The notes under the pieces were generated by a model. That model worked only from the letters and a program-made list of their open reading frames with translations. It ran no database searches and was not told where the DNA came from. 64,000 bases of DNA from Alkalispirochaeta sp. Lineage in GTDB: Bacteria > Spirochaetota > Spirochaetia > DSM-27196 > Alkalispirochaetaceae. Location of the stretch: the NCBI GenBank assembly GCA_965242725.1, contig CBDESZ010000012.1:1-64000 (forward strand), given 5' to 3'. A program made the position numbers and the translations under genes. Positions 38,699 through 63,034 of this stretch are shown here, piece by piece. Numbering within the stretch: the first letter of the stretch is position 1; every line of letters begins with the position of its first letter.

Positions 38699-38715
38699 AT
38701 GTGTATCCTTTCATT

Positions 38716-40658: not shown

Positions 40659-40733
40659 GCCGTAAATTGTGCTCATATATCGACAAATGTCAACGTTTAG
40701 CGGCATATGTGAATCACGAACAACATCGGGCAG

Positions 40734-41288
40734 CTACGAATACGTGTACGTATTCTGATTCGAATTTCCATAGGAAAACGGGATATTGACGGTAAAATCA
40801 TCGCCGTCACCGGGCTGGTCGTAATAGACCAGGTGACCTGCCGCGTCCCAGCGGTAGAGATGGCTCTTCCCGGCGCTGTCGGTGACGACCACCTCTCTGC
40901 TGTCAGGAGACCAGTCGTAGGTGGTGCTCCGTTCACCCGTCGGCTTCACCGCTATCAGCCGCCCGGCGGCGGCATAGGTCATTTCCGTCCCGCCCGTGGC
41001 GGGGCTGTCGATGACCGACAGATTGCCCCACTGGTCGTAGCCCAGGCTGGTCGTTTCTCCCGCTCCATTGGCGACGTGACGGGGGAGGCCCAACGGACCG
41101 TATCCGGCATAGTACCGGGTGCGTTCATCCGGGTCGGCGGCGGCGGTGAGATTCCCGCGCTCGTCATAGGTGTAGACCCACGCACCGGAAATCCCGTCGA
41201 TCTGGACGCGCCGCAGCTGGTTGTACGCCTCACCCCACTCATAGCGCCGGGTCACCTGGTCGGGGCCGGTGGAGCGGTCCTGGATCAT
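40734..41288 (-). pseudogene. Truncated Rhs core remnant with no C-terminal toxin
   Basis: Near-identical to the main Rhs core (STGPDQV..YYDQPG), then an unrelated tail. Confidence 0.85.
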
Positions 41289-41572: not shown

Positions 41573-42048
41573 CTACGTTCCCATGAAAATTCGGATAGTG
41601 TCTATTTTGTTGTCGGAATCAAATGTGAGCTTCAACTCCAAAACATCGAAATCTTCGTTGAAATAGTAGAATGCCCCTTTAAACACCGTATCGGGTTGTC
41701 CGAGTAGTCGGAGAACATCGCCTCGGGGACTACCAATTGTAAGTCCATTGATTACGGAATATCGATCTGACAAAAGAGAAATCCCGTATATCCTGTTCTT
41801 ACCGTCCTCGGATTCGGTATTTGATGTAGAAATTGCTACGTTGTCATATCGATACACTCGAAGTGTAATACTACCGTAATCCCGAATTTCGTAATCCGTC
41901 ATTCCTAGAACGTCTATTGCTCTTGAGAACTCATCTCCTAACACAATTTTGAGTTATCTATACAAATGTAGAAATCATCTATTTCAAAATCCGCGTACAG
42001 AAATGTGCTGCCCAGCAAAAGGAGTGTGCCAAAAATAAATCTTTTCAT
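41573..42048 (-). CDS. Putative exported immunity protein to the M23 toxin, frameshift at ~41948
   Basis: Signal peptide MKRFIFGTLLLLGSTFLYA; adding one A joins it to ORF 41573..41944; AT-rich; directly follows the CT. Confidence 0.7.
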
Positions 42049-42059
42049 TGCGATACCTC

Positions 42060-43662
42060 TCATTCTTGTTTTGGAAGCAGTGTCTCAGGGTCTATTGGAC
42101 GACCATCCTTTCGAATTTCGAAATGTAGATGGGGATCGGTATCTTTCCTCGTTCCCGTTGTTCCAAGAAAATCCCCCTGCCGGACTTGATCGCCGGCTTC
42201 TACGGCATGAGTGTCCATGTGTACATATCGTTGCTCATATCCATCGTCATCCTGGATTATCAAATAGGAGCTACGACTCGCTGATCTCGAGTACTCCAAG
42301 TCTGCAACAGTAACCCTTCCTCCACCGGACGCATAAACTGGAGTTCCCATTGTTGCTCTCAAATCAATTCCATCATGCCGTGCCGGTATAGCATCGTCTC
42401 TCATTCCGAAGGGCGATGTAACATGGTTTTCTTTCAACGGCCATTCGAATCTTGGTTCGTTAACCTCCCCATTCCCCGGCACCGCCAGGGCTTCGGGCTC
42501 TCTTCCAACCCCCACAAATCCACAAAGTTCACCGGATCTCCGCCCACGTAGGCGTACCAGTTCCAGCCGTCCTGTATGGGATCTCTGCTCAGGAACTTGC
42601 CGTCTCCGCATCGTACCACCGGGCACCGAAGTAGGTAAGACCCGTCGCCTGGTCGTAAAGGTGGCCGGTGAACCCCACGCTGTTGTAGGGCTCAAAGATG
42701 CCGGCCATGGCCCTCCCGTAGGCGTCCCAGGCGTAGCGGGCGACCGGTTCGCCGTGGCGGTCGGTGATCGCCACGGGACTGCCCAGCCGGTCGGTGTGGT
42801 AGTACATCACCCCGCCTTTGGTATGCAGAAAGCCCTCCGGGCCCGGCTCTCGTCTGCCGTGAAAGCCGTACATCTTCACCGCCACGAGACGCCCCGCGAC
42901 GTGGAAGTACTCCTTGTATGGATTCGCCTCCTCGCCCTCGCTCACATCGTACTCCGCAAGGAGGGTCCGCTCGTGCCAGAGGTAGGCGCTGCGATCGGTA
43001 CTGCGTGGCGTCATTCGTTCATCGGTGGTTTCAATGCGTGATACCATTCGTCCAAAGGCGTCATAGCCGTAGCGTACGGTAACGCCTTCGGCCGTGCGCG
43101 CTTCAATGAGTTCGCCCCGGCTGTTCCAGCTCAAGGTTGTCGTGCCGTCGGGGGTTCGTTTCTCCCGGACCTCCCCGGCGCGGGTGTACTTGTAGTCGAT
43201 AGACCCCGCTTCCACCAGGCGGTTAAGACCTTCGTAGGTGAATTGGTCCCAGGAGCCGTCGCGGGTGCGGCGCTCGATGTTGGCCGCATCGTCGTAGTCC
43301 CAGGTCTCACGTTCCACGAGGGGTGGGAAGGTTACCTCGCTGTCCCACGCTTCACCGCCGGGATCCCCGAGGCCGGGCGGTCCCTGATCATCCGCTCTCC
43401 CCTGCCCGGGATGGGTCGCCTCAGGAACACCGGTGTAAATGGCACCGTACCCAACCGCGTGACCCGGCGGAAACTGTCCGTTCTGCCAGGAGCGGATGTT
43501 TGCTGTGAGCTCACTTGGGTATGAGATGTCGTCAAGCCGTCCCGCCTCGTCGTAATCATAACTCCAGCGATACTGGGCTTCCCGCATTTCCTTGAGTCGC
43601 TGGTCGGGGTAGTAGGCAAAGCTGCGCTCCAGAAGGGTGCCGGTTGGGCCGTTCCAGCTATA
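42060..43662 (-). CDS. Orphan Rhs cassette 4 with an M23 peptidase C-terminal domain (two 1-nt deletions at ~42600 and ~42504)
   Basis: Rhs core end (YFGARWYD, DPVNFVDLWGL), then M23 HDGID...YVHM...PHLHFEIR. Confidence 0.88.
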
Positions 43663-43684: not shown

Positions 43685-44011
43685 TCAATCGTTGGGCGGA
43701 TTCCTGATCGCTTTCTTAACAACCATGCCTATACTCGCAACGGTTACGCCGGTTGCAATTATTACTGATACAACCATCATGAAAACATCCGTTGATATAT
43801 GTTGGACTCTTTCGACGTATATGCTCCAGACGGTCACTATCGCGAACATTAACAGTAGGGAGTATCCAATCAGATTTTTCATTTTACTAATCAATTTTCT
43901 CTGAATCTGTGAATCGGTTGCTTCGAGGCGACGCCTAACAAACGGCAAACTGAAACGACCAAGAATACCGATAAAGAGTACGTATCCGATAAGAAAATAC
44001 TCCACTTTCAC
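43685..44011 (-). CDS. Putative 3-TM immunity protein
   Basis: 108 aa, three hydrophobic segments, AT-rich, 30 bp after the CT stop. Confidence 0.75.
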   Translation of the reverse strand: MKVEYFLIGYVLFIGILGRFSLPFVRRRLEATDSQIQRKLISKMKNLIGYSLLLMFAIVTVWSIYVERVQHISTDVFMMVVSVIIATGVTVASIGMVVKKAIRNPPND

Positions 44012-44041: not shown

Positions 44042-46405
44042 CTATTCATTCATCCGCCGAATTGTCCGGTCAGCAAATTTGCGAATTGTCTCAACGGTGA
44101 TATCGATCCGATTGATCGTTTTATCAATATTTCCATGTCTCGCGAGGTCTGATCCGACGCTGAATGTCACCAGACCACCAATCGCGATTGGAACATTTCC
44201 CGAAATCACACCCGCTGTCGTCAAAGTCGCTCCCAAAGTCATGGCGTTCGCGCCGGCGACGCGCTCCCACCCAGTCGGCGTGTCTGGTGGCGGCGAATAT
44301 GCCGCGTGTTGCTCCATCTCCCGAGCATCCTGGTATGGATTCCTTACAGTTCCACTCGTCGGCATCGCCGCAGAATTGCTCGGTGGTGTTGCGTATACTC
44401 CTCTGGCAACCTGTATACGTCCCGGCCCTGGTTCATAGGCGATGGTATTCCCCGGCACCGCCAGGGCCTCGGGCTCTCTTTCCAACCCCCACAAATCCAC
44501 GAAGTTCGCCGGATCACCGCCCACGTAGGCGTACCAATTCCAGCCGTCCTGTATGGGGTCTCTGCTCAGGAACTTGCCCGTCTCCGCATCGTACCACCGG
44601 GCACCGAAGTAGGTAAGACCGGTCGCCTGGTCGTAGAGGTGACCGGTGAAGCCTACGCTGTTGTAGGGCTCAAAGATGCCGGCCATGGCCCTCCCGTAGG
44701 CGTCCCAGGCGTAGCGGGCGACCGGTTCGCCGTGGCGGTCGGTGATCGCCACGGGACTGCCCAGCCGGTCGGTGTGGTAGTACATCACCCCGCCTTTGGT
44801 ATGCAGAAAGCCCTCCGGGCCCGGCTCTCGTCTGCCGTGAAAGCCGTACATCTTCACTGCAATGAGGCGCCCGGCAACGTGGAAGTATTCCTTGTACGGA
44901 TTCGCCTCCCCGCCCTCGCTCACATCGTATTCCGATAGGAGGGTCCGCTCGTGCCAGAGGTAGGCGCTGCGATCGGTGCTGCGTGGGGTCATTCGTTCTT
45001 CGGTGGTTTCAACGCGTGATACCATTCGTCCAAAGGCGTCATAACCGTAGCGTACGGTAACGCCTTCGGCCGTGCGCGCTTCGATCAGCTCTCCCCGGCT
45101 GTTCCAGCTCAAGGTTGTCGTGCCGTCGGGGGTTCGTTTCTCCCGGACCTCCCCGGCGCGGGTGTACTTGTAGTCGATGGACCCCGCTTCCACCAGGCGG
45201 TTGAGGACTTCGTAGTCAAACTGATCCCACGAACCGTCGCGGGTGCGGCGCTCGATGTTGGCCGCATCGTCGTACTTCCAGGTCTCACGTTCCACGAGGG
45301 GCGGAAAGGTAATTTCGTTGTCCCACGCCTCGCCGCCACCGGTGTTGCCACGGCCGGGTGGTCCCTGGCCATTCGGCCCACCCTGCCCGGGATGGGTCGT
45401 CTCAGGAACGCCGGTGTAAATGGCACCATACCCAACCGCGTGACCCGGCGGAAACTGTCCGTTCTGCCAGGAGCGGATGTTTGCTGTGAGCTCACTTGGG
45501 TATGAGATGTCGTCAAGCCGTCCCGCCTCGTCGTAATCATAACTCCAGCGGTACTGGGCTTCCCGCATCTCCTTGAGTCGCTGGTCCGGGTAGTAGGCAA
45601 AGCTGCGCTCCAGAAGGGTTCCGGTTGGGCCGTTCCAGCTATAGGTTTTCAGGAGATTGTCGGGATCGTAAGTGAGGTGGGCGGCCGTGCCGTTTGCGTA
45701 GTCCAGCCGCGTCATGCGTCCGCGATCGTCCCAATCCAGGACGGCGCCGATGCCGTGGGGTGCGCTGAATCGTTCGGTCCAGCCCGCCGGGTTGCGCTCG
45801 TAGGTGACCACCTCTCCCTCGGGAGTTGTCATGGTCGCAAGGTTTCCGAGCTCGTCGTAACCGTAGAGGATCCGTTTCCCGATATCCTCATAGGTTACCG
45901 CCGAGAGACGTCCCGCTTCGTTGTACGCAAAGCGCTCCCGCATGTCAGGATCGTCCGCTACCATCAGGCGCCCCGCCGCGTCGTAATCAAAGCTCACCGT
46001 CTCGTCGGGATAGACCACCGATTCTAAGAGTCCCCGGCTGTTCCGGCGGTAGACCACCGTGCCCGCCACGGAATCACGCTTCTCTTTCACCCGGCCGGCC
46101 TCGTCATAGACATACTCCACCCGTCGCTCCGCGTCGACCATGCTCTCCAGGAGGCCCGAGCCGTTGTAGTTCCACTGGAAGACGCGGTTCTCCGGGCCGG
46201 TCATGCGGCGCACATATCCCCGGGGGTCGTACTCCAGATACTCCGAGACGATACCCCCCGGCTCCTCTACCCGATCCAATCTGCCGGCGCTGTCGTAGTG
46301 GTAGTTCGTGGTGCCCTCGGGACCCGCGATGCGTTCAATCCTCCCCGCCGGATCATAGACGTACTCCCGGCTCCCTTTCTGTCGTGGATTAGTAAAATGG
46401 ATCAT
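44042..46405 (-). CDS. Orphan Rhs cassette 3 with a hydrophobic-hairpin C-terminal domain
   Basis: YD repeats, DPANFVDLWGL, and CT containing AMTLGATLTTAGVISGNVPIAIGGLVTFSVG. Confidence 0.9.
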   Translation of the reverse strand: MIHFTNPRQKGSREYVYDPAGRIERIAGPEGTTNYHYDSAGRLDRVEEPGGIVSEYLEYDPRGYVRRMTGPENRVFQWNYNGSGLLESMVDAERRVEYVYDEAGRVKEKRDSVAGTVVYRRNSRGLLESVVYPDETVSFDYDAAGRLMVADDPDMRERFAYNEAGRLSAVTYEDIGKRILYGYDELGNLATMTTPEGEVVTYERNPAGWTERFSAPHGIGAVLDWDDRGRMTRLDYANGTAAHLTYDPDNLLKTYSWNGPTGTLLERSFAYYPDQRLKEMREAQYRWSYDYDEAGRLDDISYPSELTANIRSWQNGQFPPGHAVGYGAIYTGVPETTHPGQGGPNGQGPPGRGNTGGGEAWDNEITFPPLVERETWKYDDAANIERRTRDGSWDQFDYEVLNRLVEAGSIDYKYTRAGEVREKRTPDGTTTLSWNSRGELIEARTAEGVTVRYGYDAFGRMVSRVETTEERMTPRSTDRSAYLWHERTLLSEYDVSEGGEANPYKEYFHVAGRLIAVKMYGFHGRREPGPEGFLHTKGGVMYYHTDRLGSPVAITDRHGEPVARYAWDAYGRAMAGIFEPYNSVGFTGHLYDQATGLTYFGARWYDAETGKFLSRDPIQDGWNWYAYVGGDPANFVDLWGLEREPEALAVPGNTIAYEPGPGRIQVARGVYATPPSNSAAMPTSGTVRNPYQDAREMEQHAAYSPPPDTPTGWERVAGANAMTLGATLTTAGVISGNVPIAIGGLVTFSVGSDLARHGNIDKTINRIDITVETIRKFADRTIRRMNE

Positions 46406-46613: not shown

Positions 46614-47003
46614 TCACAATACTGGAAGCATAAACACAGCCGCTGTGACCAGTACTCCGGAAAGGGCGCCTATCAGCCTTCCGGGACGTTGCAGTCCGTC
46701 AGCATTACTCTCCTTCTCTGCAGAACTTGGCTGACTAAAAACAACTGCATGCCCGACCAACGCAAAGAGAAGCCACAAACGTGCGCTTTCCCCTTGCTGG
46801 TCTCCGAGAACTGCACTTCCGGATAAATAGCCGATTGTGCTCATTCCAAAATAGTTTATCAGTTGAAGCACAAACTGGCCTGCACGCCCTTGTCTCCAAA
46901 ACGAGACCTTGGTCTGGACAAAAAGAGTGACAGTCGTGACAAACGGAATCGCCACTAATTCTGCCACGAATGCTACAAGTATTCCAACGATAATAATTAG
47001 CAC
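46614..47003 (-). CDS. Putative 4-TM immunity protein
   Basis: 129 aa, hydrophobic, GGAGGT RBS, follows the CT of cassette 2. Confidence 0.7.
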   Translation of the reverse strand: MLIIIVGILVAFVAELVAIPFVTTVTLFVQTKVSFWRQGRAGQFVLQLINYFGMSTIGYLSGSAVLGDQQGESARLWLLFALVGHAVVFSQPSSAEKESNADGLQRPGRLIGALSGVLVTAAVFMLPVL

Positions 47004-47147: not shown

Positions 47148-50138
47148 CTAGTCACCACCCAATACTTGCTTCACTACTGGAACGATCACTTCTTTTGCCA
47201 TGTTGATGATTTTTCCGATGAATTCGCCAGCTTCGCGTCCCAGCTGAGACGCGTCATCTGGCGGGGCTTCTGGTGGTGACTCCGCTCCGGTAGGCTTCAC
47301 CGCGTCGGCGGCTCCGATCACGACGTTTACCCTGTAACGAATCTGGGCCGCAGGATCTGGCGTAGCCAGCATGCGACCATGCTCCAGGATTTTGTTTCGC
47401 ACACGAACGACAGTGTCCGCTATGCGACCAATCAGGCCTTTAGACTCAGCGTCATTTCCATCCCCTTTCGTCGCTTCCAACCCCCACAAATCCACAAAGT
47501 TCACTGGGTCACCGCCCACGTAGGCGTACCAGTTCCAGCCGTCCTGAATGGGATCTCTGCTCAGGAACTTGCCCGTGTCCGCATCGTACCACCGGGCTCC
47601 AAAGTAGGTAAGACCCGTTGCCTGGTCGTAAAGGTGGCCGGTGAAGCCCACGCTGTTGTAGGGCTCAAAGATGCCGGCCATGGCCCTCCCGTAGGCGTCC
47701 CAGGCGTAGCGGGCGACCGGTTCGCCGTGGCGGTCGGTGATCGCTATGGGGCTGCCCAACCGGTCGGTGTGGTAGTACATCACCCCGCCTTTGGTGTGGA
47801 GAAATCCCTCCGGGCCCGGCTCTCGTCTGCCGTGAAAGCCGTACATCTTTACCGCAATGAGGCGCCCGGCAACGTGGAAGTACTCCTTGTACGGATTCGC
47901 CTCCCCGCCCTCGCTCACATCGTATTCCGCTAACAGGGTCCGCTCGTGCCAGAGGTAGGCGCTGCGATCGGTGCTGCGTGGGGTCATTCGTTCTTCGGTG
48001 GTTTCCACCCGGGATACCATTCGTCCAAAGGCGTCATAACCGTAGCGTACGGTGACCCCGTCGGCGGTGCGCGCTTCGATCAGCTCTCCCCGGCTGTTCC
48101 AGCTCAAGGTTGTCGTGCCGCCGGGGGTACGCTTCTCCCGGACCTCCCCGGCACGGGTGTATTCGTAGTCGATGGATCCCGCGTCCACCAGGCGGTTGAG
48201 GCCTTCGTATTCAAACTGATCCCACGAGCCGTCGCGGGTACGGCGCTCGATGTTGGCCGCGTCGTCGTAGTCCCAGGTCTCATGTTCCACGAGGGGCGGA
48301 AAGGTTACCTCCCTGTCCCACGCCTCGCCGCCGGGATCCCCCAGGCCGGGCGGTCCCTGATCATCCGCTCTCCCCTGCCCGGGATGGGTCGCCTCAGGAA
48401 CACCGCTGTAGATGGCACCATACCCAATCGCGTGTCCCGGCGGAAACTGTCCGTCCTGCCAGGAGCGGATGTTTGCCGTGAGTTCACGCGGGTATGACGC
48501 TTCCTCGAGCCGTCCCGCCTCGTCGTAGCGGTAACTCCAGCGGTACTGGGCTTCCCGCATCTCCTTGAGTCGCTGGTCGGGGTAGTAGGCAAAGCTGCGC
48601 TCCAGAAGAGTTCCGGTTGGGCCGTTCCAGCTATAGGTTTTGAGGAGGTTGTCGGGATCGTAAGTGAGATGGGCGGCCGTGCCGTTTGCGTAGTCCAGCT
48701 GCGTCAGGCGGCCGCGATCGTCCCAGTCCAGGACGGCGCCGATGCCATGGGGTGCGCTCAACCGTTCGGTCCTGCCCGCCGGATCACGCTCGTAGGTGAC
48801 CACCTCTCCTTCGGGGGTTGTCATGGTCGCGAGGTTTCCGAGCTCGTCGTAGCCGTAGAGGATCCGTTTCCCGATATCCTCGTAGGTAACCGCAGAAAGG
48901 CGGCCCGCCTCGTTGTACGCAAAGCGCTCCCGCATGTCCGGATCGTCCGCTACAGTCAGGCGGCCCGCCGCGTCGTAGGCAAAGCTCACCGTCTCATCGG
49001 GATAGACCACCGATTCCAGAAGCCCCCGGCTGTTCCGGCGGTAGACCACCGTGCCCGCCACGGAATCACGTTTCTCTTTCACCCGGCCGGCCTCGTCATA
49101 GACATACTCCACCCGCCGCTCCGCATCGACCATGCTCGCCACGAGGCCCGAACCATTGTAGTTCCACTGGAAAACGCGGTTCTCAGGACCTACCATGCGG
49201 CGCACAAATCCCCGGGGGTCGTACTCCAGGTACTCCGAGACGATACCGCCCGGCTCCTCCACCCGATCCAATCTCCCGGCATTGTCGTAGTGGTAGTTTG
49301 TGGTTCCCTCCGGTCCAGCGGCGCGTTCAATCCTCCCCGCCAGGTCGTAGACGTACTCCCGGATCCCCCGGCCGGGGATGGTTTCGGTGCGGATCTGTCC
49401 GTTGGGGTGGTAGGTATACTCCCACACACCCGCCTCCGGCGGATTGTAGGCGGTCACATCTCCGGCAAGGTTGACCGTCCATTCGTAATGCGCCTCCGTG
49501 GCGTCGGTGTAGAACTCCAGGTGCCCCAGGGGGTTGTAGCTCCAGGAGTGGGCGCCGCTGCCCGGCTGGTCGTAGTAGACCAGGTTGCCCGCCGCGTCCC
49601 AGCGGTAGAGATGGGTCTCCCCGGCGCTGTCGGTGACGACCACTTCCCTGCTGTCGGGTGACCAGTCGTAGGTGGTACTCCGCTCTCCCGTCGGCTTCTC
49701 CGCGATCAGCCTCCCCGCGGCGTCATAGGTCATTTCCGTCCTGCCCGTGGCGGGGCTGTCGATAACCGACAGATTGCCCCACTGGTCGTAGCCCAGGCTC
49801 GTCGTTTCTCCCTCGCCATTGGCAACGCTGCGGGGGAGTCCCAACGGACCGTACCCGGAATAGTACCGGGTGCGTTCATCCGGATCGGCGGCGGCGGTGA
49901 GATTTCCGCGCTCGTCATAGGAGTAGACCCATGCACCGGAGATCCCGTCGATCTGGACGCGCCGCAGCTGGTTGTACTCATCACCCCATTCATATTGCCG
50001 GCTCACCTGGTCGGGGCCGGTGGAGCGCACCACGTTCTTTCGTTCATCATACACAAAGGTCCATCGGCGCCCCGTCTCATCGATCACGGCGGTGCGGTTG
50101 TAGCGATTGCCCGGGTCGGTGTATCGGTCCTGGATCAT
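47148..50138 (-). CDS. Orphan Rhs cassette 2 with an amphipathic-helix C-terminal domain
   Basis: 996 aa, near-identical to the main core from YTDPGNRY onward; unique CT after DLWGL. Confidence 0.92.
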   Translation of the reverse strand: MIQDRYTDPGNRYNRTAVIDETGRRWTFVYDERKNVVRSTGPDQVSRQYEWGDEYNQLRRVQIDGISGAWVYSYDERGNLTAAADPDERTRYYSGYGPLGLPRSVANGEGETTSLGYDQWGNLSVIDSPATGRTEMTYDAAGRLIAEKPTGERSTTYDWSPDSREVVVTDSAGETHLYRWDAAGNLVYYDQPGSGAHSWSYNPLGHLEFYTDATEAHYEWTVNLAGDVTAYNPPEAGVWEYTYHPNGQIRTETIPGRGIREYVYDLAGRIERAAGPEGTTNYHYDNAGRLDRVEEPGGIVSEYLEYDPRGFVRRMVGPENRVFQWNYNGSGLVASMVDAERRVEYVYDEAGRVKEKRDSVAGTVVYRRNSRGLLESVVYPDETVSFAYDAAGRLTVADDPDMRERFAYNEAGRLSAVTYEDIGKRILYGYDELGNLATMTTPEGEVVTYERDPAGRTERLSAPHGIGAVLDWDDRGRLTQLDYANGTAAHLTYDPDNLLKTYSWNGPTGTLLERSFAYYPDQRLKEMREAQYRWSYRYDEAGRLEEASYPRELTANIRSWQDGQFPPGHAIGYGAIYSGVPEATHPGQGRADDQGPPGLGDPGGEAWDREVTFPPLVEHETWDYDDAANIERRTRDGSWDQFEYEGLNRLVDAGSIDYEYTRAGEVREKRTPGGTTTLSWNSRGELIEARTADGVTVRYGYDAFGRMVSRVETTEERMTPRSTDRSAYLWHERTLLAEYDVSEGGEANPYKEYFHVAGRLIAVKMYGFHGRREPGPEGFLHTKGGVMYYHTDRLGSPIAITDRHGEPVARYAWDAYGRAMAGIFEPYNSVGFTGHLYDQATGLTYFGARWYDADTGKFLSRDPIQDGWNWYAYVGGDPVNFVDLWGLEATKGDGNDAESKGLIGRIADTVVRVRNKILEHGRMLATPDPAAQIRYRVNVVIGAADAVKPTGAESPPEAPPDDASQLGREAGEFIGKIINMAKEVIVPVVKQVLGGD

Positions 50139-50376: not shown

Positions 50377-50625
50377 TCAGTAAGCGAAAAAAGAGACTAT
50401 TACCACAAGTCCTGCAATTCCGTATAACGCCCAAAATAAAAGTCCTTCCCACGGAATTCTACGCTTTTCCCTACAAATCCTGAAGTAGTTACCTAGAGCA
50501 CTACTACCCAAATGAGTTCTTAACCAACGTCGGTCAAATGTCATATATTGCGCTAAGAACGGCAAAATCCTAAAGTAATAAAGAAGTAGAGCACCCGCAA
50601 TTGATACAATCAATATCCACAACAT
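50377..50625 (-). CDS. Putative 2-TM immunity protein
   Basis: 82 aa, MLWILIVSIAGALLLYYF...LLFWALYGIAGLVVIVSFFAY; starts 1 bp after the CT stop. Confidence 0.7.
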   Translation of the reverse strand: MLWILIVSIAGALLLYYFRILPFLAQYMTFDRRWLRTHLGSSALGNYFRICREKRRIPWEGLLFWALYGIAGLVVIVSFFAY

Positions 50626-50626
50626 A

Positions 50627-52592
50627 CTATCGTAAAGTCCTTGCATTGCGTGTATATGAGCCACCGCTATATCGTACGCGCGAGGCTGCTTCGCCGGCAG
50701 CGCGAAAACCAGGGTTGTCCACTGTATATGTCAGGGACGCCGATACTGAAACGGGTAATAACGACGATCCTCCACTCGAATTCGCTGTCAATTGTGAGGA
50801 TCGCCCCGTAGACGTTCTTGTCCCACTCAACGTCACTTGCGGTGTTACCGTAATTGGAGCTCCGAAAGTTGCACTCCCACTAATTGAAGCGCCATACATA
50901 TCATGCATCGTCGCACCCGGATAATTCGAAACACGCCTTCCAAAATCGATACCTATATCTGTTTCTACAATAGCAGAAACTTCAAATAGCCGTTTGGTTT
51001 CGACCGGCACACCACCCTGGTACTCTGTAGCTGTGCTTGTAGCAACTCCCAAACCAATCCCTGCATAAGTCTCTATATACCTAGAGTCCACTGATACTCC
51101 TGTAAAATCCGGTTCCGGCGGTTTCCCATTCCCCGGCACCGCCAGGGCCTCGGGCTCTCTTTCCAACCCCCACATATCCACGAAGTTCACCGGGTCACCG
51201 CCCACGTAGGCATACCAGTTCCAGCCGTCCTGTATGGGATCTCTACTCAGGAACTTGCCCGTCTCCGCATCGTACCACCGGGCTCCAAAGTAGGTAAGAC
51301 CCGTCGCCTGGTCGTAGAGGTGGCCGGTGAAGCCTACGCTGTTGTAGGGCTCAAAGATGCCGGCCATCGCCCTCCCGTAGGCGTCCCAGGCGTAGCGGGC
51401 GACCGGTTCGCCGTGGCGGTCGGTGATCGCCACGGGGCTGCCCAGCCGGTCGAGGTGGTAGTACATCACCCCGCCCTTGGTGTGGAGAAATCCCTCCGGG
51501 CCTGGCTCCCGTCTGCCGTGAAAGCCATGCATCTTCACCGCAATGAGGCGCCCGGCAACGTGGAAGTACTCTTTGTACGGACTCGCCTCCCCGCCCTCGC
51601 TCACATCGTATTCCGCAAGGAGGGTCCGCTCGTGCCAGAGGTAGGCGCTGCGCTCGGCGGTCGGGGGGATCTCGCCGTCGGCGGGTGTGGCTGTGCGGCT
51701 CACCATTCGCCCAAAGGCGTCATAACCGTAGCGTACGGTGACCCCGTCTGCCGTACTCGCTTCGATCAGCTCTCCCCGGCTGTTCCAGCTCAAGGTTGTC
51801 GTGCCGTCGGGGGAGCGCTTCTCCCGGACCTCACCCGCACGGGTGTACTCGTAGTCGATGGACCCCGCTGCCACCAGGCGGTTGAGCCCTTCGTAGGTAA
51901 ACTCATCCCACGAGCCGTCGCGGGTGCGGCCCTCGATGTTGGCCGCATCGTCGTAGTCCCAGGTCTCACGTTCCACCAACGGAGGGAAGGTAATTTCGTT
52001 GTCCCACGCCTCGCCTCGTCCCACGTTCTCCGCTCTCCCCTGTCCCGGGTGTGTCGTCTCGGGAACGCCGGTGTAAATGGCACCGTATCGCGTGTCCCGG
52101 GGGAAACTGTCCGTTCTGCCACGATCTGATGTTCCCGGTGAGCTCGCTTGGATATGAGGCGTCATCAAGCCGTCCCGCCTCGTCGTAATCATAACTCCAG
52201 CGATACTGGGCTTCCCGCATCTCTTTGAGTCGCTGGTCGGGGTAGTAGGCAAAGCTGCGCTCCAGAAGGGTTCCGGTTGTGCCGTTCCAGCTATAGTTTT
52301 TCAGAAGATTGTCGGGATCGTAAGTGATATGAGCGGCCGTCCCGTTTGCGTAGTCCAACCGTGAGAGGCGCCCGCGATCATCCCAATCCAGGACCGCGCC
52401 GATACCGTGGGGTGCGCTGAACCGTTCGGTCCGTCCCGCCGGGTCGCGCTCGTAGGTGACCACCTCTCCTTCGGGGGTTGTCATGGTCGAGAGGTTTCCG
52501 AGCTCGTCGTTGCCGTAGAGGATCCGTTTCCCGATATCCTCGTAGGTTGCCGTAGTGACACGTTCCTCAAATTCCACCGATACTGTGCCCAC
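50627..52592 (-). pseudogene. Orphan Rhs cassette 1 with a beta-strand-rich C-terminal domain; frameshifted by a ~5-nt deletion at ~52088
   Basis: Core homology starts at TYEDIGKR. GHA[VG]YG is broken. The CT is Ser/Thr/Gly/Val-rich. Confidence 0.85.
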
Positions 52593-52765: not shown

Positions 52766-53149
52766 TTACTGCATTTCCTCCAGAGAATACCCTGAGCTGC
52801 GGTCCTTGGTACTCATCGATATTTTCACTAACGCGTCTGCAAGGTGGGATATTTCGATCACTTCAAGTACGACAAAAAAAGCTGTTAGGAAAGATAGTCC
52901 GGCGCCGACCATTCGGAGCGATAGGGACCCGTCAAACCAGATCGCGCCAAGTGGGCGGGATAGAGTGATGACCAGAAAAACTACAACACCCGCAACCAAT
53001 AGCCTCTTGGCTTTTCGTAATCGCCTATTGAGTTCTTCGATGTTCGATATTTTTGATATTACATTCTTTCCGACGACTATTGCCTGAATACCGGTCCCTA
53101 AAAAGGACAACCCGAATATTGCAAGGATTATCAGCATAATTTCTTTCAT
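52766..53149 (-). CDS. Putative 3-TM immunity protein of the main Rhs
   Basis: MKEIMLIILAIFGLSFLG..., GGAGG RBS, three hydrophobic segments, AT-rich. Confidence 0.78.
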   Translation of the reverse strand: MKEIMLIILAIFGLSFLGTGIQAIVVGKNVISKISNIEELNRRLRKAKRLLVAGVVVFLVITLSRPLGAIWFDGSLSLRMVGAGLSFLTAFFVVLEVIEISHLADALVKISMSTKDRSSGYSLEEMQ

Positions 53150-53213: not shown

Positions 53214-56200
53214 TCACCATTGTTGAATCCGGTCGATCAAGGCGTTCACTGCGCGACGGGTGCGATCAAGGCCACTCCCCTCCGCGAGATCGTAGCCCAA
53301 ATATGCCGTACCCGCTGCCGCTACAAGAAAGGGTGCGGCCGCTCCGGCACCAGATGCTGCGGCAGCAGCATATGAAGCACCGGCTAATACGCCAGCCTTA
53401 ACGACGCTCGTCGCTAACGCGGAACCGACGGAAGCAAACGTACCCGCAGCTCCAAATGCTGCGGTAGCCGCTTCGATTTCGATTTTTGACGCTTCTCGTG
53501 GTTGATTCTGTTCAGCCGCAAGTGTTTCCATCTGACGCACATCAGCATACGGATTTCTCTCTATGCTATTCCCCGGCACCGCCAGGGCCTCGGGCTCTCT
53601 TTCCAACCCCCACATATCCACGAAGTTCACCGGGTCACCGCCCACGTAGGCATACCAGTTCCAGCCGTCCTGTATGGGATCTCTACTCAGGAACTTGCCC
53701 GTCTCCGCATCGTACCACCGGGCTCCAAAGTAGGTAAGACCCGTCGCCTGGTCGTAGAGGTGGCCGGTGAAGCCTACGCTGTTGTAGGGCTCAAAGATGC
53801 CGGCCATCGCCCTCCCGTAGGCGTCCCAGGCGTAGCGGGCGACCGGTTCGCCGTGGCGGTCGGTGATCGCCACGGGGCTGCCCAGCCGGTCGAGGTGGTA
53901 GTACATCACCCCGCCCTTGGTGTGAAGAAAACCGTCAGGGCCCGGCTCCCGTCTGCCGTGAAAGCCGTACATCTTCACCGCAATGAGGCGCCCGGCAACG
54001 TGGAAGTACTCTTTGTACGGACTCGCCTCCCCGCCCTCGCTCACATCGTATTCCGCAAGGAGGGTCCGCTCGTGCCAGAGGTAGGCGCTGCGCTCGGCGG
54101 TCGGGGGGATCTCGCCGTCGGCGGGTGTGGCTGTGCGGCTCACCATTCGTCCAAAGGCGTCATACCCGTAGCGTACGGTTACGCCGTCGGCGGTGCGCGC
54201 TTCAACCAGCTCTCCCCGGCTGTTCCAGCCCAAGGTTGTCGTACCGTCGGGGGAGCGCTTCTCTTTGACCTCCCCGGCCCGGGTGTATTCGTACTCAATC
54301 ATCCCCGCTTTCACCAGACGGTTGAGCCCTTCGTAGGTGAACTGGTCCCACGAACCGTCGCGGGTGCGGCGCTCGATGTTGGCCGCGTCGTCGTACTTCC
54401 AGGTCTCACGTTCCACCAACGGCGGGAAGGTAATTTCGTTGTCCCGCGCCTCGCCGCCGGGATCCCCGAGGCCGGGCGGTCCCTGATCATCCGCTCTCCC
54501 CTGCCCGGGATGGGTCGCCTCAGGAACACCGGTGTAAATGGCACCATACCCAACCGCGTGTCCCGGCGGAAACTGTCCGTCCTGCCACGATCTGATGTTC
54601 CCGGTGAGCTCGCTTGGATATGAGGCGTCATCGAGCCGTCCCGCCTCGTCGTAGTCATAACTCCAGCGATACTGGGCTTCCCGCATCTCTTTGAGTCGTT
54701 GGTCGGGGTAGTAGGCAAAGCTGCGGTCCAGAAGGGTTCCGGCCGGTCCGTTCCAGCTATAGGTTTTCAGGAGGTTGTCGGGATCGTAGGTAAGGTGGGC
54801 GCTTGTCCCGTTTGCGTAGTCCAGCCGCGTCAGGCGACCGCGATCATCCCAGTCCAGAACGGCGCCGATGCCGTGGGGTGCGCTGAACCGTTCGGGCCGG
54901 CCCGCCGGATCACGCTCGTAGGTGATCACCTCTCCTTCGGGGGTTGTCATGGTCGCGAGGTTTCCGAGCTCGTCGTAGCCGTAGAGGATCCGTTTCCCGA
55001 TATCCTCATAGGTAACCGCAGAAAGGCGGCCCGCCTCGTTGTACGCAAAGCGCTCCCGCATGTCCGGATCGTCCGCAACGGTCAGGCGGCCCGCCGCATC
55101 GTAGGCAAAGCTCACCGTCTCATCGGGATAGACCACCGATTCCAGAAGCCCCCGGCTGTTCCGGCGGTAGACCACCGTGCCCGCCACGGAATCACGTTTC
55201 TCTTTCACCCGGCCGGCCTCGTCATAGACATACTCCACCCGCCGCTCCGCATCGACCATGCTCGCCACGAGGCCCGAGCCGTTGTAGTTCCACTGGAAGA
55301 CGCGGTTCTCAGGATCGGTCATGCGGCGCACATATCCCCGGGGATCGTACTCCAGATACTCCGAGACGATGCCGCCCGGCTCCTCCACCCGATCCAATCT
55401 GCCGGCGCTGTCGTAGTGGTAGTTCGTGGTGCCCTCGGGGCCCGCGACTCGTTCAATCCTCCCCGCCGGGTCGTAGACGTACTCCCGGCTCCCCCGTCCG
55501 GGGATGGTCTCGGTACGGATCTGTCCGTTGGGGTGGTAGGTATACTGCCACACACCCGCCTCCGGCGGATTGTAAGCGGTCACATCTCCGGCAAGGTTGA
55601 CCGTCCATTCGTAATGCGCTTCCGTCGCGTCGGTGTAGAACTCCAGGTGCCCCAGGGGGTTGTAGCTCCAGGAGTGGGCGCCGCTGCCCGGTTGATCGTA
55701 GTAGACCAGGTGACCTGCCGCGTCCCAGCGATAGAGATGGGTCTCCCCGGCGCTGTCGGTGACGGCCACCTCTCTGCTGTCGGGCGACCAGTCGTAGGTG
55801 GTGCTCCGTTCACCCGTCGGCCTCACCGCAATCAGCCGCCCGGCAGCGTCATAGGTCATTACCGTCCTGCCCGTGGCGGGACTGTCGATAACCGACAGAT
55901 TGCCCCACTGGTCGTAGCCCAGGCTGGTCGTTTCTCCCTCGCCATTGGCGACTGTGTGGGGGAGGCCCAACGGACCGTATCCTGCATAGTACCGGGTGCG
56001 TTCGTCCGGGTCGGCGGCGGCGGTGAGATTCCCGCGCTCGTCATAGGAGTAGACCCACGCACCGGAGATCCCGTCGATCTGGACGCGCCGCAGCTGGTTG
56101 TACTCCTCACCCCACTCATATTGCCGGCTCACCTGGTCGGGGCCGGTGGAGCGCACCACGTTCTTTCGTTCATCATACACAAAGGTCCATCGGCGCCCGG

Positions 56201-57506
56201 TCTCAGCGATCACGGCGGTGCGGTTGTAGCGATTGCCCGGGTCGGTGTATTCGTACCGTACCGGTGGGCGTCCGACAATCCCCTTTGACTTCAAACGTCC
56301 CAGCTCGTCGTAGACATATTGCCAGTCGGTTCCCCGGGGATCGGTGAACACGGTCCTTCGCTCATTGGGACTGAAATCGTAGGTGAACCGGTTGTACTGG
56401 CGGCCGTCGACATGGACCGTCACCAGACGGTCTTCCCCATCGTATGCGTACTGATAGACCTGTCCGGAGGGAGCCACCAACCGGTCAATCCTCCCCTCCT
56501 GATCGTAGAAATACTCCCGCACCTCGTCCTTCAGGCCGACCACCCGTTGAAGCCTTCCCAGCCCGTCATAGATGTAACGCACGTCCATGCCCAGGGGAGC
56601 GCCGACTCTAACGAGTTTGTCTCCCGTGTATTCAAAGATGTAATTCCTGCCGACGGCATCCTCGATTCGCGCAATACGACCTTCACCGTCATAGGTAAAT
56701 GACAACCCGTGTCCCGTCCGGTCCACAATCGACAGAAGGCGCCCTGCGGTGACCTCGTTCTCTTTCCAGCGTGCCCAGTACCCGGCGTAGGTGTACTCGA
56801 CGCCCTCTTTTGTCCGCTCGGTAAACGTTCCGTCAGGGTTACGAACAATTGTATTGGTGTTGAGCTCACTCCCTACCCACGCTCCGGCGGAGAGATCGGT
56901 ATCGATGAGGGGATCACCGCCGAATCCGTTTACGGGGATGTGCGGATTTGCTTCAAACATGTAGACGCTTGTCCACCCCTCTCCGTTGGTGACCTCAAGG
57001 GCGTAGTCCCACTTCATCGTGAGCCGTCGCTCAAAAGAGTGGCGCCACTTGGGACCCAGATCACCGCCGCCCTCCAGTTTGGTCGTATAGACGCGTTCCA
57101 GCGTAAAGGGATAACCGGGTCCGGGAATCTTTATGTCGGTGTAGTGGGCGATAAAATCACCGGTGTACGGGTATACGGGATCACCGGCAATCTCCGCACC
57201 CTCCGGCGCAGACGCACCGGTAGGAGGGGTGTCCGATTCAGCCGGCTCTTCCGGTGGATCACCCCGACGAAGCTCTTCCTTGGTAGGTGGGGGAGGATCG
57301 TCGCCACCTTCATCATCACAATTACCCCAGTAGGTACAATCTCGTTTATCTGGATCAATTTCGCTATAATTTGGATCTGCCGCAAGGGGCGCTATAACCA
57401 CAGAAATGGTTGCGAACGTGACAAAAGACCAGACCATCTGTCTCCGTCTTCTGTATCTGATAGACCTCGATTCGGTATTTTGTGAGGCAAAAAATCGAAA
57501 ATTCAT
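53214..57506 (-). CDS. Full-length Rhs/YD-repeat protein with signal peptide, DUF6531-like domain and Ala/Gly-rich hydrophobic CT
   Basis: Basic n-region, hydrophobic h-region and PLAA site; GDPVYPYTGDF..LERVY; many YD repeats; RHS core YHLDRLGSP..YFGARWYD..DPVNFVDMWGL. Confidence 0.95.
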   Translation of the reverse strand: MNFRFFASQNTESRSIRYRRRRQMVWSFVTFATISVVIAPLAADPNYSEIDPDKRDCTYWGNCDDEGGDDPPPPTKEELRRGDPPEEPAESDTPPTGASAPEGAEIAGDPVYPYTGDFIAHYTDIKIPGPGYPFTLERVYTTKLEGGGDLGPKWRHSFERRLTMKWDYALEVTNGEGWTSVYMFEANPHIPVNGFGGDPLIDTDLSAGAWVGSELNTNTIVRNPDGTFTERTKEGVEYTYAGYWARWKENEVTAGRLLSIVDRTGHGLSFTYDGEGRIARIEDAVGRNYIFEYTGDKLVRVGAPLGMDVRYIYDGLGRLQRVVGLKDEVREYFYDQEGRIDRLVAPSGQVYQYAYDGEDRLVTVHVDGRQYNRFTYDFSPNERRTVFTDPRGTDWQYVYDELGRLKSKGIVGRPPVRYEYTDPGNRYNRTAVIAETGRRWTFVYDERKNVVRSTGPDQVSRQYEWGEEYNQLRRVQIDGISGAWVYSYDERGNLTAAADPDERTRYYAGYGPLGLPHTVANGEGETTSLGYDQWGNLSVIDSPATGRTVMTYDAAGRLIAVRPTGERSTTYDWSPDSREVAVTDSAGETHLYRWDAAGHLVYYDQPGSGAHSWSYNPLGHLEFYTDATEAHYEWTVNLAGDVTAYNPPEAGVWQYTYHPNGQIRTETIPGRGSREYVYDPAGRIERVAGPEGTTNYHYDSAGRLDRVEEPGGIVSEYLEYDPRGYVRRMTDPENRVFQWNYNGSGLVASMVDAERRVEYVYDEAGRVKEKRDSVAGTVVYRRNSRGLLESVVYPDETVSFAYDAAGRLTVADDPDMRERFAYNEAGRLSAVTYEDIGKRILYGYDELGNLATMTTPEGEVITYERDPAGRPERFSAPHGIGAVLDWDDRGRLTRLDYANGTSAHLTYDPDNLLKTYSWNGPAGTLLDRSFAYYPDQRLKEMREAQYRWSYDYDEAGRLDDASYPSELTGNIRSWQDGQFPPGHAVGYGAIYTGVPEATHPGQGRADDQGPPGLGDPGGEARDNEITFPPLVERETWKYDDAANIERRTRDGSWDQFTYEGLNRLVKAGMIEYEYTRAGEVKEKRSPDGTTTLGWNSRGELVEARTADGVTVRYGYDAFGRMVSRTATPADGEIPPTAERSAYLWHERTLLAEYDVSEGGEASPYKEYFHVAGRLIAVKMYGFHGRREPGPDGFLHTKGGVMYYHLDRLGSPVAITDRHGEPVARYAWDAYGRAMAGIFEPYNSVGFTGHLYDQATGLTYFGARWYDAETGKFLSRDPIQDGWNWYAYVGGDPVNFVDMWGLEREPEALAVPGNSIERNPYADVRQMETLAAEQNQPREASKIEIEAATAAFGAAGTFASVGSALATSVVKAGVLAGASYAAAAASGAGAAAPFLVAAAGTAYLGYDLAEGSGLDRTRRAVNALIDRIQQW

Positions 57507-58879
57507 TCTCCCCCTCCAATCAAATACGGTGTCACGATGACAAACAGATCCGTCTCCAGGGTGCTGGTACGGTAGTTGGTAAAGAGCACCCCCAACAGGG
57601 GGATGTCGCCCAGGATGGGAATTCTGCCGCGATGACGGATCTCCCGTTTTTCCACCAGGCCGCCGATGACGATGGCCGTCCCCGATGCCACCCTGACCGT
57701 CGTCTCTACCTGGCGGCTGCTCGTTGTGGGATAGCCTTCCTTGGTTGTGCCGGTAATGGTGGTGACGTCGGTTACGATCTCTGTGGTGATCTCTCCGCCG
57801 CCGTTGTGGCGGGGGAGAATGGACAGCTCGATACCGCCGACAATGTCCTGCTTGGTCTGATAGGTCTGATCGCCCGAGGACTGAGTGACGATGATGGGAA
57901 AGCGCTCCTCCGTCTTCATGACCGCCGGAATGCCGTCGATCGTCGATACCCGGGGATTGGCGAGGATCTGCGCCTCCCCTTCCCCTTTCAGCATGTGCAG
58001 CGTTGCCCGCACCTCCACCGGAGAGCGCAGAAAGGTCTGCAGCGGCAGGGCGATCGCCTGGCCGTAATTGCTCTCCTCCTCCAGACCGATCGTGATGGAG
58101 TCACTCACTTCCAGCCCGAGCCGCGACGCGGCGTCGGTGTTGAGCTCCACCACCTGGGCGTCTATGAGTATCTGGTCCCCCGGGCGGTCCAGCCGGTCGA
58201 TGAGGTCACGGATATCCAGATAGCGCTCCATCCGCCGGTCAAGAATCAGTTGATTCCGCCGGGGCGCCACCTGTATCGCCCGGTCACCCCGGTCCACCAG
58301 CCGCCGCAGGATCGACGCGATCCCCTCGGCGTCACCGTACTGCAGCGTTACCGTGGCGTATCCGCCGTCGGCCTCTTCCGGAGGCACCCGGTCCTCGCCG
58401 GCCATATCCGCCGTCTGAAAGCGCATTGTCAGGATGCGTGCATCCGGTGATACCGAAACTACCTGAAAGGCCGGTTGGGTCAGCTCGATTTCCACAAACA
58501 GATCGCCCTTCGGCGGATCCCGGAAGAGCCGCGTCAGCACATCCGGCTCGTCCAGCTCCTCCGGAACGACCGTCACCGCACGGATCAGGGAGCTGCTTCC
58601 CTCGATCACGACGCCGTCGGGACCGGTCCGACCTGCACGGAGAAGAACGGTCATTTGCCGCTGTTCATCACCCCACCGTGTCTCGATTCCTTCCAGACGC
58701 TCACCGCTGATGCGTACCACGTTGTCCACGTATCGGATCGTCGAGATCACCGGACCATGGCGGAGACTCGGCCCGGTCTCGGCAAATACTCCCGCGGGAA
58801 GAACGAACAGGGAGAAAACGAACGAAAGGAGTATCAGACTCCTGGGGTATGGTGAGAAATGTATGCCACGAAGTATCAC
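57503..58879 (-). CDS. Type II/III secretion-family secretin (signal peptide, AMIN-like, N3, secretin domain)
   Basis: TLQYGDAEGI..RNQLIL (N3); LDRPGDQILIDAQVVE, ILANPRVSTIDG, IPILGDIPLLGVLF and FVIVTPYLI. Confidence 0.92.
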   Translation of the reverse strand: MILRGIHFSPYPRSLILLSFVFSLFVLPAGVFAETGPSLRHGPVISTIRYVDNVVRISGERLEGIETRWGDEQRQMTVLLRAGRTGPDGVVIEGSSSLIRAVTVVPEELDEPDVLTRLFRDPPKGDLFVEIELTQPAFQVVSVSPDARILTMRFQTADMAGEDRVPPEEADGGYATVTLQYGDAEGIASILRRLVDRGDRAIQVAPRRNQLILDRRMERYLDIRDLIDRLDRPGDQILIDAQVVELNTDAASRLGLEVSDSITIGLEEESNYGQAIALPLQTFLRSPVEVRATLHMLKGEGEAQILANPRVSTIDGIPAVMKTEERFPIIVTQSSGDQTYQTKQDIVGGIELSILPRHNGGGEITTEIVTDVTTITGTTKEGYPTTSSRQVETTVRVASGTAIVIGGLVEKREIRHRGRIPILGDIPLLGVLFTNYRTSTLETDLFVIVTPYLIGGGE

Positions 58880-62289: not shown

Positions 62290-62883
62290 TCAGAGATCCT
62301 CCGGCCGCACCGTCAGGCGCAGTCCGGCAAAAATCGATACCTCCGCGCCTTGACGGAGGTCCGCAACGGCCGGAAGACCGTACTGTCCGTCGTCCTTGAG
62401 GGTGTAGATAAAGACTTCGAAGGTGTCGGGATTGATGATCCAGTACTCCCCCACCTGCCGCATTTCGTAGAGTTTCCGTTTTTCAGTCTGGTCTTTCATC
62501 GCCGTCGCCGGAGAGAGCACCTCAATGATGAAATCAGGAGCACCACGCACTCCTTCCTTTACCAGTTTTGCCGGATCACACACGACAAATGCGTCCGGCT
62601 GGACCACCGTTTCCACATCGTCGATCGCCTCGTCTCCTCCGGTCAGAAAGACGTCCACGGGAGCGATGTGGGGTCGGCACGGTTTCCCCGTAAAAAATCG
62701 ATCCAGTTGGGCGGCGATCTGCATTAAAAAGGATTGATGTATCCGTCGCGGAGCAGGACTCATATTGTAGGCGACGCCGTCTATCAACTCCCAGCGCTCG
62801 TCCGCCGGCCACTCTCGGTAATCGCCGTATGTGTACCGCCCGGACCGTTGGACGGGATTTGTTCCGGGAACAACCTCACTCAT
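62290..62883 (-). CDS. Uma2 family endonuclease-like protein
   Basis: RWELIDG..MSPAP..HQ, VQPD, APDFIIEVLSP and EYWIINP motifs. Confidence 0.92.
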   Translation of the reverse strand: MSEVVPGTNPVQRSGRYTYGDYREWPADERWELIDGVAYNMSPAPRRIHQSFLMQIAAQLDRFFTGKPCRPHIAPVDVFLTGGDEAIDDVETVVQPDAFVVCDPAKLVKEGVRGAPDFIIEVLSPATAMKDQTEKRKLYEMRQVGEYWIINPDTFEVFIYTLKDDGQYGLPAVADLRQGAEVSIFAGLRLTVRPEDL

Positions 62884-63034
62884 ACGGATATTGTACACCC
62901 TCTGATCCGTTTCGTCCCGCGCACAACGCACTGCTTCTCCCGAGCGACACAAGGGAGGTCCTGCCCGCAATCGACGTGACCGGTGCATGGGCAGCCATGT
63001 TTTCTGTATACTCGACGGAAAGGGAGTAAAAAAC

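Follow-up and report, generated by a model that had tools for sequence, protein, structure and literature searches.

How does a large Rhs toxin that leaves the cytoplasm by the Sec pathway cross the outer membrane? The question is raised by a gene pair in a 64,000-nucleotide stretch of Alkalispirochaeta sp. DNA (positions 1 to 64,000 of contig CBDESZ010000012.1, assembly GCA_965242725.1; hereafter, the window), in which a secretin open reading frame (ORF) of 458 amino acids (aa) (57503..58879, minus strand; the GTG start is not certain) is directly followed by the ORF of a full-length Rhs polymorphic toxin of 1430 aa (53214..57506, minus strand). The window lies on contig C12 of a 4.34 Mb genome in 34 contigs that is 91.8% complete, which we call G000 (handles in G, L, and P denote genomes, loci, and proteins). 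Secretins are generally regarded as passive pores that depend on an inner-membrane machine driven by ATP, as in the type II and type III secretion systems (T2SS and T3SS), the type IV pilus (T4P), the Tad system, and phage pI. The sequence comparisons described here point to a dedicated export route, in which the Rhs protein would cross the inner membrane by Sec and then exit through its own secretin with no known motor, a reading to which we assign a probability of roughly 0.6.

The secretin belongs to a small clade, members of which can be examined together with downstream DNA at 14 loci. These come from 12 sources in two phyla, the spirochaetes and the double-membraned Firmicutes, and comprise the window, L005 (the second G000 copy), L007-L014, L077 and L078 (both G586), L152 (G762), and L164 (G409), the last of which shows the secretin tail only. 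At all 14 loci, the secretin gene is directly followed by a gene for a signal-peptide-like protein, and DUF6531 or RHS repeats are seen downstream in 12; the contigs of L009 and L010 end first, L010 after an acidic TSP3 linker like that of other members. The expectation that the pairing is conserved elsewhere was thus borne out, including by the G762 and G409 pairs, which turned up after the pattern was set. The description of a two-gene system holds for most loci and fails for four (L011, L012, L078, and L152), where homologous accessory genes of 330-365 aa with a carboxypeptidase-regulatory-like domain stand between the secretin and the Rhs. Adjacency is kept across the two phyla down to ~30% identity, and among the loci with downstream DNA, no clade secretin was found without an Rhs-type partner. 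Within G000, both DUF6531-bearing Rhs genes follow such a secretin. The two secretins share 94% aa identity, yet they precede two unrelated Rhs N-termini, with the similarity splitting exactly at the shared stop/start. Because near-identical secretins stand before unrelated N-termini, their association is with a class of Rhs rather than with one inherited gene. The gene module is conserved across two phyla and is under selection.

At the window junction, ATGA at 57503-57506 joins the secretin stop to the Rhs start, as originally read, and the last codons of the secretin form a GGAGG-type ribosome-binding-like site 5' of the Rhs start (overlap and site together, 57503..57520, minus strand), from which we infer that the two genes are translationally coupled. 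The ATGA junction is also present in L005, L007, L008, and L164, and short-read contigs from one sample (three runs), which may be the sample of origin, span the window junction with no differences. ATGA overlaps are, however, common in G000 (155 of 1061 co-oriented long-ORF pairs). We therefore rejected the overlap as evidence on its own, and it is the conserved pairing that carries weight. A promoter and terminator scan remained at chance level (2 found versus 2.6 expected, and 2 versus 4.6).

The domain architecture of the secretin is compact. Pfam assigns PF00263 (E=1.8e-35, 122.5 bits) and one PF03958 domain, and a predicted monomer model (mean pLDDT, the predicted local distance difference test, of 83.5) shows the barrel with gate hairpins that defines the secretin superfamily. 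A leader of approximately residues 1-33 is followed by a predicted AMIN domain (residues 43-160), a single N3-type domain (172-234, from the model), and the barrel (236-455), directly after which the protein ends with no S-domain. Neither N0, N1, or N2 nor a C-terminal S-domain was detected by Pfam, the structure model, or fold search, and N0/STN is matched by 0/20 clade members. The modelled residues 43-160 match AmiC (4bin, Z 11.1, root-mean-square deviation 2.5, 100 aligned) and the PilQ B2 domain (4aqz, Z 10.0, deviation 2.5, 96 aligned), and the AMIN assignment is further supported by an atlas lead of 0.85 and by a weak Pfam match in 2/20 clade members. The barrel is matched at Z 12-13 overall, with pIV (7ofh, Z 13.3) tied with other secretins. 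In NCBIfam, the window secretin falls under every cut-off, including those of TIGR02517 (GspD, 136 bits versus 351), TIGR02515 (PilQ, 114 versus 284), and TIGR02516 (SctC, 115.8 versus 238), and all 12 clade members scanned score far under the curated cut-offs of GspD, SctC, PilQ, and MshL.

Sequence searches and trees likewise set these secretins apart. With a single query sequence, 13 proteins are retrieved at E<1e-94 before a drop to 1e-28, and 10 clusters score above 315 bits when a profile is run against 1.84 billion representatives; numerous giant secretins, 1,300-5,500 aa long and matched in as many as 25 stretches, rank next after the clade (P0128-P0267). Phage and plasmid collections held distant secretins only, all under 60% identity. 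Trees were inferred from the C-terminal 300 residues under LG+G4 without a mixture model, the first from 89 hand-picked rows and the second after dropping 35 near-duplicates and long branches; the constraint test used 34 rows. The clade is monophyletic in both (Shimodaira-Hasegawa-like approximate likelihood ratio (SH-aLRT) support of 99 in the first tree, 100/99 in the reduced tree) and lies apart from GspD, SctC, CpaC, pIV, and the T2SS, T4P, and Tad secretins of the hosts themselves, so that the phylogeny called for by the original prediction does resolve a separate lineage. Grouping the spirochaete members with the T2SS-like secretins of the same hosts was rejected by the approximately unbiased (AU) test (p-AU 0.002), while a single origin of the four spirochaete members is neither shown nor rejected (p-AU 0.42). 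Within the clade tree, the Bacillota rows fall outside the spirochaete rows, an arrangement suggestive of a possible transfer of the secretin into spirochaetes. Source names in the clade include Limnochorda pilosa and Anoxybacter fermentans, whose lineages we take to have an outer membrane. An outer membrane is described for Halanaerobiales (PMC5007114; this and the papers below are cited for the portions of their text covered here).

Whether these secretins could be served by a conventional motor depends on what their hosts encode. As first noted from the sequence, the island lacks genes for an ATPase, pseudopilin, platform, type VI secretion system (T6SS), or Tc toxin, none of which was matched among the 34 ORFs between 26.2 and 63.5 kb. 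This absence extends to the genome: T2SSE, T2SSF, N-methyl pilin, VipB, SpvB, and TatC have no match in G000, its secretins number exactly two, both Rhs-coupled, and a tblastn search with 26 T2SS, T4P, accessory, and phage pI queries from related clusters matched only these two. T2SSE over the cut-off, T2SSF, and N-methyl pilin are not matched in five hosts, namely G000, the drafts G498, G499, and G502, and G586, a single contig of 3.8 Mb whose other two secretins lie in pilin-like/chaperone-like clusters. Overall, parts of T2SS, T4P, Tad, and T6SS go undetected in several hosts. A secretin in the service of a host T2SS or T4P, an outcome that the original prediction had named as fatal to its proposal, is thus not what we observe: no such system is detectable in G000 or G586, and the secretin forms its own clade. 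In both of these best motor-less genomes, the paralogous secretins are, by sequence comparison, under purifying selection. The barrels of the G000 paralogs differ by 34 synonymous versus 2 non-synonymous changes (ratio of non-synonymous to synonymous rates, dN/dS, of 0.018 in the core), and the core dN/dS of the G586 paralogs is 0.11; the G498/G502 comparison was left aside, because part of the G502 copy appears to be frame-shifted. Taken together, the sequences make it probable that the secretin functions as a motor-less export pore. A selected secretin in motor-less genomes would also provide a two-gene test of whether secretins can open and export without a motor, and of how Rhs toxins exported by Sec get past an outer membrane.

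We envisage the following mechanism. The secretin and Rhs would be made together, and both would cross the inner membrane by Sec. The secretin ring would sit in the outer membrane, held by its AMIN domain to the peptidoglycan, to which such domains anchor, while no N0 domain is present for docking to a platform in the inner membrane, and the Rhs would engage the N3 ring and gate directly, itself triggering opening. Exit might then proceed by passage of the folded cocoon through the pore, by threading with folding outside in the ratchet-like manner of two-partner secretion, or by release of only the self-cleaved C-terminal domain, a tip of 12-19 kDa. That domain would attack neighbours, in the window mostly at the membrane or cell wall, with the adjacent gene giving immunity and the orphan modules acting as exchangeable tips. 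The overall logic would resemble two-partner secretion by the CdiB-CdiA mechanism, with the secretin replacing the Omp85 pore. In its strictest form, in which Rhs proteins of ~150-330 kDa would cross the outer membrane through one secretin that lacks an inner-membrane partner, with gating and driving force both supplied by the substrate itself, we regard this mechanism as tentative, at somewhat under even odds.

Several observations weigh against this interpretation. The RhsA cocoon measures 86 x 65 Å (PMC8765631) and pIV measures 74 Å at N3 with a modelled open gate of 65 Å (PMC8563730), dimensions by which passage of a folded Rhs shell appears marginal; the latter study further makes the case that phages do not pass through pIV passively. 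Motorised systems are present in 6/11 host genomes (G409, G496, G497, G500, G501, and G762) and could act in trans, G000 is only 91.8% complete, and the selection on the secretins may date from earlier hosts. Frames are broken in the Rhs of L005, L013, L014, and L078 and in both the secretin and the accessory gene of L012, a degraded locus. Rhs genes also occur without the secretin: in the single-contig genome G332, an intact signal-peptide Rhs of 2134 aa is followed by immunity-like genes and no secretin scores over the cut-off, and the drafts G443, G444, and G488 have Rhs without secretin. A secretin is hence not needed by all such Rhs proteins. G586 also has a third, truncated Rhs of the window's type, which stands behind an unrelated operon. 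Finally, none of the four window C-terminal domains scanned matches a toxin family, and their toxicity is inferred.

Of the alternatives, the one that survives best is that the secretin is specific to Rhs and borrows a motor, being driven by a T2SS or T4P platform or some other unrecognised energiser encoded elsewhere, with the module recent or decaying in motor-less hosts. The six motorised hosts and the several broken loci fit this view, as does an AAA ATPase gene ~7 kb from one G586 copy, near a transposase-like region, although this gene, encoded on the opposite strand and found at one locus only, scores under the T2SSE cut-off. In addition, related Rhs genes in spirochaetes adjoin complete T2SS-like clusters. 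Every motorised host, however, has a cognate secretin of its own beside the ATPase, and each of the two motor-less genomes has retained two copies on which purifying selection acts. The N0 domain of GspD is taken to dock the inner-membrane complex. For pIV, a coupling of N0 to the pI ATPase has been proposed, with N3 implicated in gate opening (PMC8563730), and the clade has no N0. On balance, a borrowed motor is unlikely, at about one chance in six.

The T2SS-linked Rhs genes deserve description in their own right. DUF6531 occurs in 28/99 genomes of the order and is thus far commoner than the secretin clade. In the 1.5 kb upstream of Rhs at 26 other spirochaete loci, ~12 Rhs genes follow a gene with a shared C-terminal motif, recognized by eye, whose product belongs to the clostripain family in 5/6 scanned. 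Five larger regions have a T2SS-like cluster with GspD, GspE, and/or GspG adjoining the Rhs, which is placed at the cluster end in L156, L166, and L172 and divergently from it in L154 and L169; across these regions we observe GspD, E, and G, a carboxypeptidase-regulatory lipoprotein, clostripain, and coiled-coil signal-peptide Rhs genes. Nine other Rhs regions show no secretin within the fetched stretch. Some secretin is present in 24/28 DUF6531-positive genomes versus 27/71 others (Fisher p 1.6e-5, a value overstated by the relatedness of the genomes; one match falls below the cut-off). The second G000 Rhs resembles the T2SS-linked type. Secretin passage thus looks to be usual for Rhs in this spirochaete lineage, with the window module as a motor-less version. 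The link of T2SS-like clusters with Rhs toxins in free-living spirochaetes is apparently undescribed, and these clusters are candidates for a T2SS that serves Rhs toxins specifically, in which clostripain might act as the processing protease.

Somewhat less probable is that the secretin and Rhs merely share a mobile cassette, with the Rhs leaving by vesicles, lysis, or another route and the secretin having a different role, for example in the release or uptake of small cargo. This would account for the Rhs of the closed G332 genome and for the AbiEi/AbiEii and Uma2 genes that flank the islands. It also suits the patchy spread of the secretin clade, which we find in 3/99 order members at E<=1e-45 (plus one partial), in 0/400 other sampled members of the phylum (best E 6e-34), and in 5/401 of a Bacillota sample, with 2/95 and 2/11 in two Bacillota classes. 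A mere passenger, on the other hand, is difficult to reconcile with the lack of any clade secretin found apart from an Rhs-type partner, with adjacency across such divergence, and with the swapping of the partner Rhs type while the junction is kept. The least probable alternative, that the secretin is an entry port in the recipient, admitting an Rhs or its tip to cells with the same module in kin discrimination or taking up DNA of killed neighbours like PilQ/HofQ, draws on the PilQ-like AMIN domain, on the typical competition of polymorphic tips with cognate immunity among close kin (PMC3482391), and on family tips that are nucleases needing entry (Tox-REase-7 with its HEAT-repeat neighbour, L078), and we discount it since it leaves the producer's outer-membrane step unexplained, five hosts have no pilin or retraction ATPase for DNA uptake, and coupling to the toxin start suits a producer role.

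The Rhs protein itself begins with a predicted Sec-type leader (residues ~1-43) with a +6 n-region, a 12-residue hydrophobic stretch (mean Kyte-Doolittle hydropathy 2.38), and an Ala-ending c-region; by heuristic script, this n-h-c pattern agrees with the leader-like start described from the sequence alone and is seen at 11/12 junctions, L014 being judged by eye. There follow an acidic Pro-rich linker with two Cys, DUF6531 (108-178), YD/RHS repeats (Pfam), an Rhs-associated core (1228-1301) with both Asp autoprotease motifs and ending at 1301, and a hydrophobic C-terminal domain of 129 aa, rich in Ala/Gly, that belongs to no known family. YD shell, plug-region DUF6531, and Asp autoprotease core are matched in the PDB down to E 4e-45. 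Pfam finds no PAAR, VgrG, WXG/LXG, or SpvB domain in the 1430-aa protein, and the reported lack of the first three therefore stands. Tat, which the original prediction had allowed as an inner-membrane route, is unlikely and was rejected: TatC was not found in G000 (it is present in 4/5 genomes searched), and the twin-arginine motif is missing by eye from most orthologous leaders. An insertion after DUF6531 (residues 180-260; window 56727-56969), with FxGDPLID and GYxAxW motifs, is common to five coupled Rhs proteins and P0269 and missing from nearly all of 120 Rhs relatives. P0269, a signal-peptide Rhs named Tumebacillus, is the second-best relative of the Rhs N-terminal region, and its name is that of a lineage that we presume to be single-membraned. 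Because P0269 gave the only strong profile match among the 120 relatives besides the coupled Rhs P0268, the insertion is non-specific and was discarded as a secretin-specific signal.

By its sequence features, which include repeats, core, variable tip, a small downstream gene, and orphan modules, this Rhs is a polymorphic toxin, and the window holds a standard array of this kind. The gene pair was correctly delimited at the outset, but those coordinates left out an immunity gene and five orphan Rhs modules reaching to ~40.7 kb, which have 89-93% DNA identity and of which 4/5 have their own tip and a small gene after it. All lie on the minus strand, and the immunity assignments are by position. 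The full-length Rhs is followed by a putative immunity protein of 127 aa with three hydrophobic segments and no Pfam match (52766..53149; a GTG extension to 53200 is possible). Next come an orphan module in two frames (50627..52592, with frames 51966-52592 and 50627-52252) with a beta-rich 178-aa tip that differs from the main one and 89% DNA identity to the main core, and a putative immunity protein with two hydrophobic segments (50377..50664). The third pair consists of a 996-aa module without leader or DUF6531 (47148..50138; 109-aa tip, 92% DNA identity) and a putative hydrophobic immunity protein (46614..47003), and the fourth of a 787-aa module whose 146-aa tip has a hydrophobic stretch (44042..46405) and a putative immunity protein with three hydrophobic segments (43685..44011). 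A frame-broken module with an M23 peptidoglycan peptidase tip (42060..43587; PF01551, E=9.5e-27) precedes a putative periplasmic immunity protein with a signal-peptide-like start (41573..42048), also frame-broken in the assembly and with an indel difference in one contig, and the array ends in a short Rhs core fragment recognized by Pfam and DNA comparison (40734..41288). Other tips in the family are Tox-REase-7 (in an orphan), LysM, and peptidoglycan-binding domains. In the window, the nature of the tips and of their partner genes, which are hydrophobic or signal-bearing, suggests that the targets are membrane and cell wall.

The broken frames call for some care. In the 42060..43587 module, a single-base indel distinguishes one other contig (depth 2.3), so that the break there may be an assembly error, and several frame breaks also occur in the ABC transporter ATPase and permease genes at 37024-38714. 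As these ABC genes suggest indel errors in the assembly, the frame breaks of the orphan Rhs modules should be read cautiously. At the end of the Rhs island lies an AbiEi/AbiEii type IV toxin-antitoxin pair (39158-40706), with AbiEii frame-broken in the assembly. Genes for Uma2-family putative endonucleases occur near both secretin-Rhs islands of G000 (window 62290-63102; L005 6607-7188; L006 199-786) and lie on both sides of the island on contig C4. A third Rhs cluster in G000 (L086, G000:C16:62000-81000) has no DUF6531, leader, or secretin; it contains orphan modules, DUF4304 and YcxB-like small genes, and insertion sequence remnants, and it adjoins microcompartment-type genes. In G332 (L161/L171, G332:C1:3322313-3331302), the Rhs is followed by three similar exported proteins of 251 aa.

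We also observe secretins outside the clade in unusual settings. Two short spirochaete secretins (L167 3-2074 and L168 2-1707) are each followed by a small lipoprotein-like gene; two-component regulators surround them, and the fetched stretch contains no T2SS genes. A second motor-less arrangement, in the class of G499 (L080 281-4916, L081-L084, L092 5008-11129, and L093 5211-10723), consists of one or two pilin-like exported genes (220-330 aa), a multi-immunoglobulin chaperone-like gene (545-590 aa) whose atlas neighbours are PapD/WxLIP/NPCBM-associated, a secretin (410-470 aa), and an outer-membrane-protein-like gene, and resembles a chaperone-usher pilus in which the usher's place is taken by a secretin. 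Its secretins form their own clade (98/99); as sister group of the Rhs-linked clade they are unsupported by the trees. Two copies of the cluster lie in the single-contig G586, which has no T4P genes, and motor-less secretin use may thus have arisen twice in double-membraned Firmicutes.

How, finally, does the module compare with known systems? We take WapA-type Rhs proteins to be members of the Sec ('T2SS/Sec') class of polymorphic toxins. A signal-peptide Rhs is not in itself unusual: in PMC3482391, Sec-exported Rhs toxins are a default class, with no signature neighbour gene in the table, and spirochaete relatives adjoin full T2SS-like clusters. The window family shares with this class the signal peptide, RHS repeats, variable tip, adjacent immunity, and orphan cassettes, and differs in having a dedicated secretin fixed in front, where the class lists none; the word 'secretin' is absent from the first 300,000 of the 357,715 characters of that paper. 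No description of a secretin-Rhs pair appeared in the literature searched, which comprised titles and the starts of abstracts, with subscription journals mostly outside it and with supplements, such as that of PMC3482391, that may hold a mention. Secretins have been repeatedly co-opted, with minimal systems defined by ATPase, platform, and pilin, and T2SS is reported in Spirochaetes (PMC6668835); that survey found no distinctive secretin architecture in the diderm Firmicute systems that it analysed, and the word 'Rhs' is absent from its text.

The defining features of T2SS, T4P, T3SS, type Vb secretion (T5bSS), T6SS, and Tc systems were not found in the window module. With the GspD of T2SS, the window secretin has in common the barrel, N3, a probable two-step periplasmic route, and the T2SS-like clusters beside related Rhs genes, but it has AMIN in place of N0-N2 and the S-domain, and GspE, GspF, and pseudopilins are absent from the locus and from the five hosts. 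PilQ likewise has an N-terminal AMIN before N-domain and barrel, whereas the window secretin has one AMIN and no N0, belongs to a separate clade, and is without pilus genes. Like pIV, a tied best fold match, it is compact, pilotin-free, and outside T2SS/T3SS/T4P; pIV, however, has N0 and the pI ATPase (PMC8563730) and is unrelated in the tree, and a partial pI query had no match in G000. The T6SS Rhs proteins (RhsA, Tse5, and RhsP) and teneurin-like proteins share the YD shell, the DUF6531 plug, and the Asp autoprotease core, and BiTLP shares hydrophobic tips (PMC13018210), while the window Rhs lacks PAAR/VgrG and the VipB sheath is absent from all nine hosts searched. For Tc toxins, SpvB is missing from the window Rhs and from G000 (it is present in 2/11 hosts), and no Tc family was matched among the 34 window ORFs scanned. 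Sec-targeted teneurin-like toxins with no obvious delivery machinery have been reported (PMC13018210), and here, unlike there, a candidate delivery gene is linked.

The closest parallel is with two-partner secretion and contact-dependent inhibition, in which an outer-membrane transporter gene also precedes a Sec-exported giant repeat toxin, followed by immunity and orphan tips, with no ATPase (PMC3482391). Here, the transporter is a secretin rather than Omp85/TpsB and the passenger has YD repeats rather than filamentous-haemagglutinin repeats or a TPS (two-partner secretion) domain; Pfam finds no Omp85/TpsB or TPS domain in the secretin or the Rhs. The parts of the module are themselves known, and what is new is the motor-less secretin arrangement. 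If the proposed route is true, it would represent a new class of protein secretion, in which a secretin plays the part of the pore in two-partner secretion.

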